From contig CAVZQN010000008.1 in NCBI GenBank assembly GCA_963777505.1, positions 192,001 through 256,000 on the forward strand: a stretch of 64,000 bases of DNA, given 5' to 3'. The notes below the pieces were generated by a model, which had not been told where the DNA came from, did no database searches, and saw only the letters and a program-made list of their open reading frames with translations. This stretch comes from an uncultured bacterium (GTDB lineage Bacteria; Acidobacteriota; HRBIN11; JAKEFK01). A program made the translations under genes and the position numbers. Shown in pieces: positions 8,498 to 46,298 of the stretch; within the stretch, counting starts at the first letter, position 1; each line of letters starts with the position of its first letter.

Positions 8498-8993
8498 TTA
8501 GCTATGAACGTCGAAGTAGTAGAGATAATCGGTCATACATGGGTTTGCCCCATGCGACCGAAGAAGAGTTGTAACCTGACCGCGATGATACGTAGAGTGA
8601 TTTACAAGATGCTGAAATATTTGGACCATCGTGTATTTCCAGATTTCACCGCTGAAAATTTGTGTACGCAATTACTTTTTCCAAAGACTCCTCAGAGGCG
8701 CTTTCGACAAGCTTCTTTAGTTCCTGATCGACTTCAGCCCATCGAACGCGCATTGAGTTTAAGTCAGGAAATTCTTGAGGGTTCATCATTTGCTTTGGGG
8801 AAATTCCATTGCAGCGTTTCATCATCACCCATTCTGCGGAAAGAATATGCGTTAAAGTATCTCGAACGGAACGATAGCTGCTTGCGACGTCTTCTGTGAA
8901 CTTTTCAGGCGGCAAAGAGGCGACGGCATCTAATATGCAGCCATTTGCCCAACGGTTGTATGCAAATAAAGTCTGAACATCGGTTGGATTCAT
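8498..8993 (-). pseudogene. DinB/YfiT family protein interrupted by a +1 frameshift near 8655-8658 (pseudogene or assembly error)
   Basis: N-half has YNRWAN and TLTHILSAE. The C-half continues in another frame as FSGEIWKYTMVQIFQHLVNHSTYHRGQVTTLLR...DYLYYFDVHS* (TAA 8498-8500). Confidence 0.85.
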
Positions 8994-9006
8994 AGTACCC
9001 TCACAT

Positions 9007-9073
9007 GTGGGCGGGTCTAAGACACGCCCGTGTAGAATCAACCTCTACTCGCGGGCGGGTTAGACGCCCCTAC
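9007..9073. repeat. GTAG-type REP-like inverted repeat pair
   Basis: GTGGGCGGGTCTAAGACACGCCC ... GGGCGGGTTAGACGCCCCTAC. Overlaps the 3' end of the upstream gene. Confidence 0.6.
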
Positions 9074-9995
9074 TGGTGAACCTGGCACTATCGCGTCAGC
9101 TAATCCAAGATACGGATCATCAATCGGGATATGCAACAGTTCCTTGTAAATGACATTTCCGAAGGTTTCGATTTTTGGAAGTGAGGTGTAGTTTGAATAA
9201 AGCGCATGAACTGCAGGACGCATCAATTTCATGTTGTTTACAGAATCAGCTTCAACAATATCGCGGCCAACTTGCTGAGGATCTTTCGTTTTGATTTTCA
9301 GCAAGCATCTCTGTCAATTCTTGCACTGTAGCCGGATCTTTGCTGATATCGTGAAAGCCTTTTGAAGCCCGGCCTCCGCTTCCCGCTTCCGCGAGGCCGG
9401 GCCTCAGATTCAAAGCTTTTAATAGCGGACTCTCTACGAGTGCTTTTGAAAGAGTAATCCTTTGTTGTTCAACATGGACTTGTTCCGAAAACTGTGTACG
9501 ATGCCATGCAATTACTTCCTGATTATTTGTTGGTGGTTTCAAAGTTTTAACGAAATCCAGCGTTTTACGAATTTCATTCACGTAGTGCACGGGGTTATAA
9601 ACACCGGGATAAGCGTCATACACATCTCCATCCGGAGATAGGATGTAAGTAACGATGTTTCCGCCAAGAGTGCGTTGCAGAGTTCGACCATTGCCGAGTT
9701 CAATCGTTACTTTTGGAACGGAACCAACACTTTCCCACACAGGAATAACTTCAGATGAAAGAAGCCGAATGACTTCGGGATCAGAGAGCGTCACGGCCCT
9801 CAGGGTTCGCCCGTTGGTTCATGTAAATTCTTGATCCAGGCGTCCGAATAAATGCAGAAGTAGAATTGGTTTGCCTTCCTGTTTCGCTTTTTCTTGAGCG
9901 GCTTTCAGGGATGTTTCCCATGGAATAGCTGCAAAGCCGTTAATCGCGAAAAGGAGGAAACTCCCGACGAGAAAGGCGCGCTTTAAATGGTTCAT
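9038..9995 (-). CDS. putative exported thioredoxin-fold selenoprotein (SelN-like motif), UGA at codon 59, one frameshift near 9295-9298
   Basis: ATG 9995 gives a signal peptide then IPWETSL...GKPILLLHLFGRLDQEFT-UGA-TNGRTLRAVTLSDPEV, in frame with ORF 9252..9794. The C-terminus (EADS..N, DDPYLGL) is in ORF 9038..9304. Confidence 0.75.
9784..9801 (-). promoter_or_regulatory. candidate bacterial SECIS hairpin
   Basis: GAGGGC-CGUGAC-GCUCUC, 6-bp stem with one G-U pair. The loop starts 23 nt after the UGA and has G at loop position 2. Confidence 0.6.
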
Positions 9996-10097: not shown

Positions 10098-11606
10098 TTA
10101 TTCGGGCATATCTGCAATATGTGATGCGATATACCAGGTATTGCCGAACGCATCTTTAACACTGGCTACCCTATCACCATAAGGCTGATCCTGGGGTGCT
10201 TGCATTGAGATTCCGCCTGCTTTAACCGCGCGATCATAGAGACTGTCAACATCTTCTACATACATGTAAATTGTCGCGGGGCTTTCATGCTCAAGGGATT
10301 CCATTCCACCGATCATCACCATGGATGAACCGATTCGAACTTCTGCATGCAGACCACCTGCTGAACCGGTCGTTCTGAAAGTTTCGGTTGCTCCAAAGGC
10401 TTCTTTTACAAACTCAAGAAGTTGTTCTGCTTTTTTCACACAAAGATACGGAGTGACAGTCTGGTAACCTTTCGGAATCGGGCTCACTTTCTTTTCAGGA
10501 GCTGCACCTTGAGTATCCGATATATGTGTTGCGATATACCAATGGTTCCCAAATGGATCTTTCACGCTTGCTTCACGATCACCATAAAACATATTTTCCG
10601 GCTTTCTCAGTGAAGTCGCACCTGCGTCAATTGCTTTTGAATAGAATGCGTCGGCATCAGGCACATACAAATGAATTGCAGCGGGCATAGGTTGAAATTC
10701 ACCATGAGCTTCACCCATTTCGATCACAGAATCCCCGATTCTTATTGAGGCGTGCATGATAATTCCTTCCGGTGAAGCGTGACGGCCGAGCTCTTCGGCA
10801 TCAAAAGCTGTTTTCAAAAAATCAAGGAGCTGCGCTGCGCCGCGTGGATGCAAGTAAGGAGTAATGCTGCGCATTCCTTGAGGAATGTAGTGAACAGTGG
10901 GTTTTGGTTCCAAAGATTGTGCATCAGGTCCTTTAACTATTTCGTCGAAGCGCTTTTGCATTTCATCCGGTGCAACGTCTTCAATGTGAGCAGAAATATG
11001 CCAGACATGGCCGAATGGATCCTGAATCTTTCCAGAGCGATCACCATAGAATTGATCTTGCACAGGCATCAATATACGTGCGCCTGCATTCACGGCACGT
11101 TCCGCAAAGGTATCCGCATCTTCCACATAAAGATGAATACTGACTGGAGACTGACCTGTTGTTTGAGGCCCAAGAATTCCATATTCAGGATACTCATCGG
11201 CAAGCATGATTGGAGCGTCGCCGATTTTAAGTTCAGCATGTCCGATCCTGCCATCAGGTTCTTGTAATCTAAAAAGTTCATTTGCACCGAGCGCCTCTTT
11301 GTAGAATTCGATCGCGCGTGCTGCATTTTTAACGACAAGGTAAGGAGTTACGGCAATTGTTTCAGGGATCATAGATTTTCCTCGTTTGATTTCAATTTGT
11401 CCCGGCTCAGACATTCTTTTTGCCTGATGAGCTAATCGCATCTTGAGTTGTGATCGAAAACTTTCGCTCGGCATATGACGAAGATCTGTTGCAAGTTGGA
11501 GTAATGGGCCCAAATCAGGATCTACTGATGCCGAAAAAGCATTTAGATCGGACAAAATTATCTCAAGCTCTTCATTGAGTTGATCGATTTGACTTCGTTT
11601 AGCCAT
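10098..11606 (-). CDS. triple VOC (PhnB/glyoxalase-like) domain protein with ~80-aa N-terminal helical extension
   Basis: Three TPYL...HA...YGDR..DxFGxxW units. ATG 11606 overlaps the sigma-factor stop (ATGGCTAA). Confidence 0.88.
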   Translation of the reverse strand: MAKRSQIDQLNEELEIILSDLNAFSASVDPDLGPLLQLATDLRHMPSESFRSQLKMRLAHQAKRMSEPGQIEIKRGKSMIPETIAVTPYLVVKNAARAIEFYKEALGANELFRLQEPDGRIGHAELKIGDAPIMLADEYPEYGILGPQTTGQSPVSIHLYVEDADTFAERAVNAGARILMPVQDQFYGDRSGKIQDPFGHVWHISAHIEDVAPDEMQKRFDEIVKGPDAQSLEPKPTVHYIPQGMRSITPYLHPRGAAQLLDFLKTAFDAEELGRHASPEGIIMHASIRIGDSVIEMGEAHGEFQPMPAAIHLYVPDADAFYSKAIDAGATSLRKPENMFYGDREASVKDPFGNHWYIATHISDTQGAAPEKKVSPIPKGYQTVTPYLCVKKAEQLLEFVKEAFGATETFRTTGSAGGLHAEVRIGSSMVMIGGMESLEHESPATIYMYVEDVDSLYDRAVKAGGISMQAPQDQPYGDRVASVKDAFGNTWYIASHIADMPE

Positions 11607-12135
11607 TTGCTTCACCCATACGAGCTCGTAAATTTTGCAATGCCCGGAACTGAAGTTGTTTTATTGCGCCTTCTGTACGTTTCATTTCTTCTGCGATTTC
11701 ACGAATTGATTTTTGCTCTCCAAAACGCAAAACAATTACGCGGCGCTGATCAACCGGAAGGCTGTTTACAGACTGAAACAGATGAGCATGGTTTGCGCCT
11801 TGATCAAAATCGATTTCATTGGACTCTTCAGGAGTTGGAATGTCACGAAATCTTGCTGCCCGCCTGGAATGATCCACAATTGCATTGGATGCAATTCGAA
11901 GCAGCCATGACACGAACGGCACGCCGCGCCATTCATACTGTTTCAGATTTGCAAGCGCCTGATGGAAAACATCTGCCGTGAGATCTTGAGCTTCAAACCG
12001 GTCGCGCACACGACTGGCTATAAAGGCATAGACACGGTTGAAATTGTTCTCATAAAGTTCCGCAAATTGGCTCGGATCCTTTTGCGCAGCCTCAATGAGA
12101 ACTCGTTCGTCTGCTTGCATTTCAGGAGCCTTCAA
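11599..12135 (-). CDS. ECF RNA polymerase sigma factor
   Basis: Region 2 (AQDLTADVF, FVSWLLRIASN) and region 4 (LPVDQRRVIVLR, SIREIAEEM, IKQLQFRA). GGAGG RBS before the TTG start. Confidence 0.93.
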   Translation of the reverse strand: MKAPEMQADERVLIEAAQKDPSQFAELYENNFNRVYAFIASRVRDRFEAQDLTADVFHQALANLKQYEWRGVPFVSWLLRIASNAIVDHSRRAARFRDIPTPEESNEIDFDQGANHAHLFQSVNSLPVDQRRVIVLRFGEQKSIREIAEEMKRTEGAIKQLQFRALQNLRARMGEANG

Positions 12136-12534: not shown

Positions 12535-13476
12535 TTACCTCAGAGTCGCAAAGTTCCAAATTTCCGAAAGAGGGGCTACGACAGAAAGCTGTTTTCCTGT
12601 GAAAGGATGTAAAAATGAAATGGAATATGCGTGAAGGCCGAAGAAATTGGCGTTTTTGAGGTTTGCTCGCAGTGCAGTGTCATGAATTCGGGTCCAATTT
12701 CCACCGCCATATTTTGTATCCCCTACGATTGGATGATTTTCTGAAAAAAGATGAACGCGAATTTGATGTGTACGTCCGGTTAAAATTTGAACATCAAGGA
12801 GCGCTCCAAAATCATATTGTTTTAAAACGCTATACGTTGTCAGAGCCGTTCTCGATCGCCTGGCGCGAACCGAAATTTTTTGCCGGTTCTGCGGATCGCG
12901 TCCTAGAGCGCGATCAATTTTTCCCTCTTTTCGTTCAAAGCGGCCATAGGCTAATGCCCTGTAATGCTTTTCAACAGTCCGTTCTTTAAACAATGCGGAT
13001 AGCTTGTGATATGCCGATACTGTTTTTGCAAAAAGGATCACACCTGATGTTTCTTTATCCAACCGGTGTACGACTCCTGGTCTGACAGGATGACCAATGC
13101 CTGCAATTTCAGGGCGTAATGCAATCATCGCATTTGCCAGAGTTTGTTCGCGATTTCCTGCACCAGGATGCGTGACCACGTTTGGCGGCTTATTCACGGC
13201 AATCAGATACTCATCTTCATACAAAATCTCCAGTGGAAACGACCATGGGCGTAATTCATTACGTTCAGCAGGCACATCAGCAATCTCGATTTCTATCGCA
13301 TCGAAAGCGCGGACATGGTAAGAGGGACGTGAAGATTTTCCGTTGACCTTCACTGTACCTGATTGAATCATTTTCTGAATTGAAACACGGCTATCGAGCG
13401 AAAGTTTCCGAACGAGATACAGATCGAGACGCTCACCGGCATCTTCGGAAGAAACGTTAAGCAAACGAGAGGTCAT
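12535..13476 (-). CDS. rluD: RluA family 23S rRNA pseudouridine synthase with S4 domain
   Basis: RLDLYL S4 domain, NKPP, VHRLDKETSG, TGRTHQIRVH. Confidence 0.9.
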   Translation of the reverse strand: MTSRLLNVSSEDAGERLDLYLVRKLSLDSRVSIQKMIQSGTVKVNGKSSRPSYHVRAFDAIEIEIADVPAERNELRPWSFPLEILYEDEYLIAVNKPPNVVTHPGAGNREQTLANAMIALRPEIAGIGHPVRPGVVHRLDKETSGVILFAKTVSAYHKLSALFKERTVEKHYRALAYGRFERKEGKIDRALGRDPQNRQKISVRARRSRTALTTYSVLKQYDFGALLDVQILTGRTHQIRVHLFSENHPIVGDTKYGGGNWTRIHDTALRANLKNANFFGLHAYSISFLHPFTGKQLSVVAPLSEIWNFATLR

Positions 13477-14272
13477 TTTGCCGAAGCAGCTTCTGCTGTG
13501 TGAGATCTACTTCGTATGAACAACACAATCAGTGAAGCGGCGAACACGATCAAACTGATGAACTGAGAAGTTGAAAGCATGCCGTTGAATACTGTTCCGC
13601 GCGGATCACCACGGAAGAACTCAACAGAAAAACGCAGGATGGAATAAAGAAGCAAGTATAAAAAGAATTGTTGACCTTCAAAACGGCGCCTGGAATATGT
13701 CAACCTGAGAATCAAAAAGATCACCAGCATTCCTGTGCCTCATATAGTTGAGTTGCATGTAGGGAAATATTAAGCGGAGTGCCTACCTGTTCCGCTGCAT
13801 CACGATTTGTAAATGTAACTCCTAGCGGAAAACCAGTTGGACATTCCTTACCCCAGCAGCATCCTGCGAAAAAGCATCCGATCCTTCCGAACATCTGACC
13901 AATTGAGAGTCCCATTGAAAGAGCATCGGCTGTACCCCAAAAACTCATATGATGTCTTCGGACGTACCAGATAGTCACAAGCACTGCCATGAGAAAGCCG
14001 CCATAATACACACCGCCCACTTGATAAATATTGAGCAAGCGGCCCCAATCCTGTTTGTAATAATCCAGGTCAACGAGTATGTGAAGAAGTTTTGCACCAA
14101 TGAGAGCTGAAATAAAAATGTAGATTACAACATCCACAATTCGAGAAGGCTCGAGGCCGTCTTTCTTTCCGTAGTAGGATGCGACTCGCAAGCCAACCAG
14201 AAATGCAATTGCGAGCATCAAGCCATAGGAATGTAATGTTATGGGTCCGATATCAAGTATGTTTGGAAACAT
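13473..14272 (-). CDS. lgt: prolipoprotein diacylglyceryl transferase, split by a 1-nt deletion near 13735 (probably an assembly error)
   Basis: YGLM, YYGGF, GRIGCFFAGCCWG and HATQLYE in the first ORF, RFSVEFFRGD and STSQFIS in the second. Confidence 0.9.
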
Positions 14273-37679: not shown

Positions 37680-37952
37680 TTAAAAATGAAGATCAACAAT
37701 GTCTACGATGCCGACGATTGCACTATCTAAGGGACCTTGCTTCTTGCCTAATGCTTCATTAGCCGCACGGCCTTCTTGTACGATCAGGACTTTTTCTCCG
37801 ACACCTGCGCCTACTGCATCAATCGCCAGAACAGGTTCTCCCATCGGCTCATCTTTCAAGCTAAGAGGTTGAACGAGCAAAAGTTTTGCTCCTTCATATT
37901 TTGGATTTTTCTGGGTCGCCACAACAGTACCAAGCACTTTTCCAAGTGTCAT
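37680..37952 (-). CDS. BMC vertex protein (BMC-P, EutN/CcmL family)
   Basis: GKVLGTVVATQK, AIDAVGAGVGE, DSAIVGIVD. Confidence 0.95.
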   Translation of the reverse strand: MTLGKVLGTVVATQKNPKYEGAKLLLVQPLSLKDEPMGEPVLAIDAVGAGVGEKVLIVQEGRAANEALGKKQGPLDSAIVGIVDIVDLHF

Positions 37953-38221
37953 AATTCTTCCACATGAAAATAATCAACAATTCCAGTGATTCCTGTGTCA
38001 GTGGGCACTATTTCTGGCAGCAGAGGAAATGACCCTTCTTTACCGCGAACGTAAATAATAGTTTCACCAATGCCCGCGCCGATCGTATCAACAGCAATCA
38101 AGGCCTGCCCGATCGGTTTGCGATCCGCTGAAATCGGTTGAACAACAAGCAATGTTTTGCCTTCAAGACCCGGCTCTTTCCGAGTGCAGACAACTGTACC
38201 GATTACTTTTCCTAGCTTCAT
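37949..38221 (-). CDS. BMC vertex protein (BMC-P, EutN/CcmL family)
   Basis: GKVIGTVVCTRK, AVDTIGAGIGE, DTGITGIVD. Confidence 0.95.
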   Translation of the reverse strand: MKLGKVIGTVVCTRKEPGLEGKTLLVVQPISADRKPIGQALIAVDTIGAGIGETIIYVRGKEGSFPLLPEIVPTDTGITGIVDYFHVEEL

Positions 38222-38223
38222 GA

Positions 38224-38490
38224 TTATTCGAAATCAATCGTATCAACAACGCCAACGATTGCCGCATCAACCGGACAATCCTTTGTTACCGTTGTCATTC
38301 TTGCGGAACTGCCGCTAACCACAAGCACACGGTCCTGTGCTCCGGCATCTACAGTATCAACAGCAACAAGATAATTGCCATATGGTTTGCCTGCGGTATC
38401 GAGTGGTTGTACTAAGAGAAGTTTGAATGGAACGAGGCGATCATCTTTCCGGGTGCAGACAACTGTACCAACAATCCTTCCAATGATCAT
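38224..38490 (-). CDS. BMC vertex protein (BMC-P, EutN/CcmL family)
   Basis: GRIVGTVVCTRK, AVDTVDAG, GSSAR, PVDAAIVGVVD. Confidence 0.95.
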   Translation of the reverse strand: MIIGRIVGTVVCTRKDDRLVPFKLLLVQPLDTAGKPYGNYLVAVDTVDAGAQDRVLVVSGSSARMTTVTKDCPVDAAIVGVVDTIDFE

Positions 38491-45860: not shown

Positions 45861-46298
45861 ATGATTGAAAAATTTCAAGAACAGCTAAAAGTATCAATGA
45901 AACAGCGCGATGAGCTGAAAACAAGCGTTTTACGGATGCTGATTTCCGAATTCAAATATGCTCAAATCGAGAAAAAAGGAACGCTCGATGAGGCAGAATC
46001 AATCCAGGTCATTCAAAAAGCAATAAAAAAACGGAAGGAAGCTGCGGAGCTTTATGAAAAAGGAGGCCGGGCAGAACTTGCTGCAAAAGAAAACGCAGAA
46101 GCAAAAATTTTGGAGACTTTTGCACCAGCTCAGATGGATGAAACTGCCGCCAGACAGAAAGTGACGGAAGTTATTCAGGAACTCGGAGCAAAGGATAAAA
46201 AAGATCTGGGCCGGGTCATGAAAGAAGTTCTGAACAGATATCGGGGTCAATTGGACGGAAAATTAGCACAAAAGTTGGTGAATGAATTGCTTCCGTAA
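45861..46298 (+). CDS. GatB/YqeY domain protein
   Basis: LRML, IKKRKEA...YEKGGR.EL, DLGRVMK, DGK. Confidence 0.92.
   Translation: MIEKFQEQLKVSMKQRDELKTSVLRMLISEFKYAQIEKKGTLDEAESIQVIQKAIKKRKEAAELYEKGGRAELAAKENAEAKILETFAPAQMDETAARQKVTEVIQELGAKDKKDLGRVMKEVLNRYRGQLDGKLAQKLVNELLP

Follow-up and report, generated by a model that had tools for sequence, protein, structure and literature searches.

The 64,000-nucleotide stretch analysed here (hereafter the window) comes from an uncultured Acidobacteriota bacterium (assembly GCA_963777505.1, contig CAVZQN010000008.1, positions 192,001 to 256,000) and carries, at 9038..9995, a candidate gene for an exported thioredoxin-like selenoprotein in which an in-frame UGA would be read as selenocysteine (Sec). 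All coordinates are those of the window, and every feature of this gene lies on the minus strand. The first coding part (9303..9995) comprises codons 1-231 in the frame of ATG 9995 and holds a leader, a thioredoxin-like domain with Sec-59 and the start of a helical C-terminal domain. A cleavable signal peptide is predicted over codons 1-22 (9930..9995), read from the sequence as a basic n-region, a hydrophobic core and Gly-Phe-Ala before the mature Ala. The UGA assigned to Sec residue 59 (9819..9821), on the basis of a Cys/TGA alignment and the Sec machinery of the genome, is followed by a hairpin in the coding region (9784..9801; 6-bp stem GAGGGC/GCUCUC, 6-nt loop CGUGAC), which resembles a selenocysteine insertion sequence (SECIS) and was identified by comparing Sec-encoding relatives. 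The second coding part (9038..9301) lies in another frame; its 87 codons and TGA stop at 9040-9038 encode the conserved C-terminal helical domain with the D-D-P-Y-L-G-L end of the family. Between the two parts, at 9302..9305, comparison with the homologue P0003 located a frameshift site with one extra base relative to homologues.

A preliminary description of this DNA had presented 9038..9995 as one hidden read-through gene. Its account of the 5' end is seen directly in the translation: ATG 9995 opens a leader and a thioredoxin-like N-terminus with the sequence that it quoted, the in-frame TGA at 9821-9819 is codon 59, and the quoted sequence continues beyond it. The open reading frame (ORF) track does lack the first 67 codons, the table-11 ORF starting at GTG 9794 (9252..9794, 180 aa). 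The single frame did not stand, the interval being 958 nt and not a multiple of three; the proposed length did, since a product of ~318 aa (231 + 87 codons) is obtained once the extra base is skipped. As assembled, the frame of ATG 9995 is 247 codons long and closes with a TGA at 9254-9252, and the conserved C-terminus sits in a different frame, in ORF 9304..9038. As a separate observation, the variable linker of the gene contains a GC-rich 14-nt inverted repeat (9363-9406; arms 93% complementary and 16 nt apart) that stands out against the 43% GC of the remaining window, and its 10-nt core occurs in three copies in the window (the third at 46063-46072) where 0.06 would be expected by chance.

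One genome per species was scanned for relatives of the gene, which yielded 516 confirmed loci, and the best 80 of these were used for the codon and hairpin counts. The codon aligned with UGA-59 encoded Cys in 66 of the 80 (TGC in 47, TGT in 19) and was TGA in the other 14, so the expectation that a search with the read-through protein would show Cys or TGA at codon 59 held in 80/80 of the related loci kept. All 14 TGA relatives read through into intact proteins of 280-419 residues. Together with the window gene they are referred to below as the Sec forms (n = 15), as opposed to the Cys forms (n = 66). The Cys/Sec column was invariant in 75/75 aligned proteins. Searching a protein database with the read-through protein returned 47 proteins at E <= 0.001 among 2,369 candidates, and in ten aligned full-length database homologues the column of the U held Cys nine times and Asp once. 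The seven closest homologues in the first alignment begin just past the TGA position, which is what gene calling interrupted by a TGA would produce.

Starts after the TGA in all of the closest homologues, and two disruptions within one gene, are also what a decaying pseudogene would offer. TGA-59 would then be a nonsense mutation and the frameshift a further lesion, and the 58 codons ahead of the TGA would have ceased to be translated together with the remainder of the gene. However, 14 other species, from at least five named phyla, also have TGA at this codon, and those 14 keep the in-frame leader, the N-terminal thioredoxin half and the same hairpin. The upstream part is moreover conserved at the protein level across the TGA; coding part 1 is 53% identical to its same-genus orthologue (L014) over residues 6-234, a span that includes the TGA. 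We consider such decay very improbable.

None of selA, selB, selC and selD lies in the 64-kb window, as had been noted, and all four were found elsewhere in the genome, which carries a complete Sec machinery. The selA (565 bits), selB (400 bits) and selD (350 bits) matches were all above the curated cut-offs, and the tRNA-Sec scored 69.6 bits and was called by ARAGORN as tRNA-SeC with anticodon tca. The selD gene (locus L001, G000:C1:410139-411071) is itself a selenoprotein gene, with one in-frame TGA, the motif SGGUAGK and a small downstream hairpin of its own. Read-through alone leaves the inserted residue unspecified, and a variant code or near-cognate suppression could in principle place Trp, Cys or Gly at position 59. 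Against this, TGA terminates 12 of the 49 longest ORFs in the window and is therefore not generally a sense codon in this organism, the full machinery is present in a genome whose selD uses UGA for Sec, homologues have Cys, the classic counterpart of Sec, at this position, and the hairpin is confined to the TGA forms. Insertion of a residue other than Sec thus seems extremely improbable.

The hairpin, with the consensus GAGRRC-CGUGNN-GYUCUC and a stem starting 17 nt past the UGA, was common to 15/15 Sec forms. Standard pairs were observed in all 90 stem cells (6 pairs across 15 Sec forms), and one pair is A:U instead of G:C in five sequences, a switch that alters two amino acids but preserves the pairing. 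Of 500 shuffles, one attained the pairing that was observed. In the same register, all six pairs formed in 0/66 Cys forms, with a maximum of five in any single locus. The 81 nt of the window folded alone were not significant (z -0.95), so the evidence for the hairpin is comparative, and Rfam gave no match around the UGA. The arrangement is like the recoding of E. coli fdhF in that the UGA is followed closely by a stem-loop with G-U in its apical loop, in a genome with selA, selB, selC and selD; it differs in its short stem of 6 bp, the 17-nt spacing and the lack of an Rfam match, and the element is best described as a predicted SECIS. The Sec/Cys pair, the candidate hairpin and the machinery together form the combination by which bacterial selenoproteins are usually recognised computationally. 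The proposal that UGA-59 is a Sec codon at the redox position agrees with the Cys or TGA found there in homologues and with the machinery in the genome, and the codon is very probably decoded as Sec.

The position of the extra base at 9305-9302 was deduced from a switch of frames in the comparison with P0003, a 90%-identical homologue: the frame of ATG 9995 tracks P0003 up to ...ELTEML, and the second frame takes over from LKIKTKDP on. When P0003 was searched against the genome of the window, it was recovered as two pieces, residues 1-167 and 162-244. Two other genes within 6 kb of the selenoprotein gene are split likewise. The lgt gene (prolipoprotein diacylglyceryl transferase; 13473-14272, minus strand) is divided into ORF 14272..13721, which matches positions 1-169 of the 240-position Pfam LGT profile, and ORF 13730..13473, which matches positions 171-239. 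Directly downstream of the selenoprotein gene, a DinB-family gene (8498-9041, minus strand) is divided into ORF 9041..8646 (profile positions 5-105) and ORF 8671..8498 (positions 116-158 of 165). No split genes were found among 21 further open frames scanned in the window.

It may be that the family is truly one of selenoproteins and that only this copy has been inactivated, the extra base being genuine and the product absent or truncated without its C-terminal domain. The frameshift is present in the assembled sequence, its site lies outside any homopolymer run, the 21 further frames without a split gene indicate that errors are not widespread in the window, and the gene, with a match in only 3 of the 41 related genomes searched (the genome of the window included), would be dispensable in the lineage. 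On the other hand, the 87 shifted codons are free of stops and 90% identical to P0003 (residues 162-244, E 7e-46), so any inactivation would have been very recent. The splits in lgt and the DinB-family gene also count against it, as three independent real frameshifts so close together are less likely than consensus errors. The lgt gene is normally indispensable in diderm bacteria, and its split points to a frameshift that is probably an assembly error. Given that both nearby genes are split in the same way, we distinctly favour an assembly or consensus error at 9305-9302 over a real lesion, and regard inactivation of this copy as unlikely.

The structure of the gene product was examined through the intact same-genus orthologue L014 (311 residues, UGA read through), for which an AlphaFold2 model was made from a 27-sequence alignment. 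The model had a pLDDT of 83.5 and a pTM of 0.82, with low pLDDT in the leader segment, and shows a strand at residues 47-54, Sec at 62, a helix at 63-72 and then an extra beta-hairpin and a helical C-terminal half. Foldseek gave 3f9u as the best match (E 2.9e-4), and the structural matches in general were domains of Thioredoxin_7, DsbH and UAS type over model residues 20-160, with the C-terminal helical domain barely covered. In the predicted structure, Sec is at the N-terminus of helix 1 of the thioredoxin fold, in the place of the first Cys of the CxxC of thioredoxins. The structural matches and the model thus bear out the earlier assignment of a thioredoxin-like fold (Trx_7/UAS type) with Sec at the redox position. 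Sequence profiles were less informative: a family-profile search of PDB sequences returned 0 matches at E <= 10, and in NCBIfam nothing came near a cut-off (NF041383, 14.2 against 275 bits; NF041199, 11.4 against 300; NF045694, 9.4 against 805).

Compared with the Thioredoxin_7, DsbH, DsbD-gamma, AGR2/3 and UAS-type domains (PF13899, PF03190), the family shares the fold and the location of the active residue at the start of helix 1 but lacks the CxxC motif. It also differs from the Thioredoxin_7 and UAS-type domains in its extra beta-hairpin, with the invariant V-T-I-D/E-F/L-G-N/D-G, and in the helical domain of ~150 residues that follows. No CxxC, UxxC or CxxU motif was found: the window protein has U-T-N-G at the site, relatives have U-T/S-N-A, and the long Cys forms described below have C-A-N-S, such that the second Cys position of CxxC is occupied by Gly or Ala in Sec forms and by Ser in long Cys forms. 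The invariant columns of the 75-sequence alignment are the Cys/Sec itself, Asn at +2, Arg at +4, Arg at +7, two Trp, the Pro before strand 3 and the V-T-I...G.G...T..G hairpin, and members of the family conserve the DDPYLGL motif at the C-terminus. In the window protein the residue before Sec is Thr and not Cys, as was first reported, and neither frame piece encodes any Cys; across the Sec forms, 10/15 carry Cys directly before Sec and 5/15, the window included, carry Thr.

All 14 Sec-type relatives open with a hydrophobic leader, two of them lipoprotein-like. The protein is likely exported to the cell envelope by its predicted leader. Lipoprotein-like leaders, with a Cys past a short hydrophobic stretch, were seen at loci L023 and L072, in the Vulcanimicrobiota part of the tree, and the other relatives have ordinary leaders.

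We conclude with considerable confidence that the locus is a real selenoprotein gene. Its product, ~318 residues long when the extra base is left out as a probable assembly error, would be an exported, single-selenol oxidoreductase of the thioredoxin fold. In the mechanism we propose, SelB with Sec-tRNA(Sec) would read UGA-59, steered by the hairpin within the coding sequence 17 nt downstream, and the leader would direct the product to the cell envelope. There, the selenolate would attack an oxidised Cys (a sulfenic acid or a disulfide) of an envelope client protein. Because the window protein has no cysteine, Sec would be its sole redox residue, and the resulting selenenylsulfide would have to be resolved by an external thiol or partner. 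The genome encodes one CcdA/DsbD-type membrane protein, a conduit that could carry reducing power across the membrane to the envelope. Functional precedents are the periplasmic DsbC/DsbG with DsbD and, as proposed for the animal selenoprotein N (SELENON), action on sulfenylated SERCA2 (PMC5751730). Thiol/selenol reductase chemistry in the envelope, which we infer from the fold and the absence of Cys, has in our estimate about an even chance of being correct.

Several observations weigh against the reading as a whole. If the frameshift at 9305-9302 in the window copy is real, the gene encodes a 247-residue protein without the conserved C-terminus. The hairpin lies within conserved coding sequence, so the protein accounts for part of its conservation, and a two-sided change is found in only one of its six pairs. 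The Pfam match to Thioredoxin_7 (PF13899; E 0.0034) reached 17.9 bits, under the gathering score of 27. There is no conserved neighbour gene that hints at a function, the most widespread neighbour cluster occurring at 11 of 81 loci, and a peroxidase or metal-binding role fits the data equally well.

The last of these points concerns chemistry alone: the protein might be an envelope peroxidase acting at the selenol, or a soft metal or metalloid binder or chaperone, instead of a protein-thiol reductase. A single Sec without a resolving Cys is consistent with such roles, as are the Arg and Asn conserved near the active residue, an arrangement reminiscent of peroxidatic sites, and the ECF sigma factor and glyoxalase/VOC-domain protein that neighbour the gene in this genus. 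The nearest structures, however, are thiol-disulfide exchange domains (DsbD-gamma, DsbH, AGR2/3) and not peroxiredoxins or GPx, and the Cys directly before Sec in 10/15 Sec forms fits selenenylsulfide chemistry. We therefore judge these other chemistries somewhat unlikely next to a thiol/selenol reductase.

To estimate the size of the family, 19 sequences were turned into a 66-residue profile covering the Sec-site region, which was then searched exhaustively against 1.84 billion entries. Counted as representatives at 50% identity, 1,895 clusters matched at E <= 0.001 and 831 at E <= 1e-10, and the best 150 of the 1,895 matches were all bacterial in type. A quick maximum-likelihood tree of 75 proteins separated two clades, the split having an SH-aLRT support of 100%. 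The first clade (19 rows) contains the 15 Sec forms and four Cys forms. All four of these Cys forms come from Fimbriimonadales, three of them with the label Fimbriimonadaceae, and the row nearest to the window is L014. The second clade (56 rows) consists entirely of "long" Cys forms of ~400-540 residues, from records labelled Acidobacteriota, Planctomycetota, Cyanobacteriota, Myxococcota, Actinomycetota and Pseudomonadota. This is a large, multi-phylum family, deeply divided into short forms, most of which have Sec, and long forms, all of which have Cys.

The long Cys forms (loci L022-L093; P0030-P0040) have an extra N-terminal region of ~80-100 residues. In many of them this region contains, just before the thioredoxin domain, two Cys four apart (L-C-x4-C) that the Sec forms lack and that could serve as an internal partner for the active Cys.

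The preliminary description had likened the product to SELENON, and we compared the two through published descriptions and variant names. SELENON is described as carrying its Sec in an SCUG motif (PMC12839072, PMC8584023), within a thioredoxin domain and on the luminal side (PMC7474598, PMC12839072, PMC8584023). Its variants p.Sec462Arg and p.Arg466Gln put an Arg four residues past Sec (PMC12839072), it has an EF-hand and, at its N-terminus, a type II membrane anchor (PMC7474598), and the reduction of sulfenylated Cys in SERCA2 has been proposed as its activity (PMC5751730). Both proteins thus have one Sec in a thioredoxin-like domain that faces an extracytoplasmic compartment, the lumen of the endoplasmic reticulum in SELENON and, by prediction, the cell envelope here. 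A Cys directly before Sec, as in SCUG, is present in 10/15 bacterial Sec forms, and Arg at Sec +4 is invariant in the bacterial family, the SELENON side of this match being taken from variant names only. Reduction of a sulfenylated Cys is also the kind of chemistry suggested for the window protein. In other respects the two differ. The window protein reads Thr-Sec-Thr-Asn (F-T-U-T-N) where SELENON has Ser-Cys-Sec-Gly, with Gly after Sec in no Sec form; it has no EF-hand according to Pfam and a predicted cleavable leader instead of a type II membrane anchor. It also continues for ~250 residues after Sec, through a helical domain to the DDPYLGL end.

A single-sequence search of proteins of 434-2000 residues returned two bacterial "hypothetical protein" matches (436-437 aa) at E <= 0.001, nothing scored when the 75-sequence alignment was searched against proteins of 906-2585 residues, and no described bacterial SELENON homologue was found in the literature searched. 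Apparent mentions of selenoprotein N in the BSepDB paper proved to be the phrase "selenoprotein name". We put the possibility that the bacterial family is the prokaryotic counterpart of animal SELENON slightly short of even. The family may also predate SELENON, as a single-domain form of the same Sec-centred thioredoxin module that is exported by means of a leader. If this kinship is true, cultivable carriers of Cys forms (Nostoc, Microcoleus) would, together with the Sec forms, provide a tractable model and a structural template, and a bacterial handle on a protein of human myopathy for which the fold, the reductant and the range of clients remain unsettled.

Thioredoxin-fold selenoproteins with Cys homologues and a hairpin in the coding sequence are already known, both as a fold and as a kind of protein. 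VPGUxxT family type 2 (NF041383) and the Trx7/PDZ selenoprotein (NF041199) are likewise bacterial and thioredoxin-like, with Sec at the redox motif, Cys homologues and an in-coding-sequence hairpin, but their motif and architecture differ from those of the window family, which scores far under their family cut-offs. In the passages searched of a 2026 catalogue and review of prokaryotic selenoproteins (PMC13188914), none of the table entries was found to carry PF13899, PF03190 or one of the related cd identifiers, or to resemble SELENON. The family seems uncatalogued, in that it has no Pfam or NCBIfam model and was not found in those passages of the catalogue. Searches of the ESM Atlas with natural Cys homologues as queries led to "hypothetical protein" clusters, or to Thioredoxin_7 clusters at low scores of 0.75-0.76. 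Selenoproteins are systematically mis-annotated, and the close database homologues of this gene are all truncated "hypothetical protein" entries with a start just past the UGA. With Sec as the sole redox residue, the window protein would be an unusually clean example of how a single selenol reacts in the cell envelope.

Upstream of the gene (10098-12135, minus strand), an ECF-type sigma factor (12135..11599) overlaps the start of a 505-aa glyoxalase/VOC-domain protein (11615..10098). The order of ECF sigma factor, glyoxalase/VOC protein and selenoprotein gene is kept in the same-genus genome (L014 1277-2882), and an ECF sigma factor was observed within 3 kb at 3 of 81 loci, namely the window, this same-genus relative and one other. 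No anti-sigma signature was detected in the first 100 residues of the 505-aa protein. Two neighbour clusters, histidine-kinase fragments (11 loci) and a trypsin-TPR protein (10 loci), were considered as partners and set aside, both being explained by lineage synteny. Elsewhere in the window (37683-38490, minus strand), three tandem full-length EutN/CcmL genes, which encode bacterial microcompartment vertex proteins, suggest that a microcompartment locus lies nearby.

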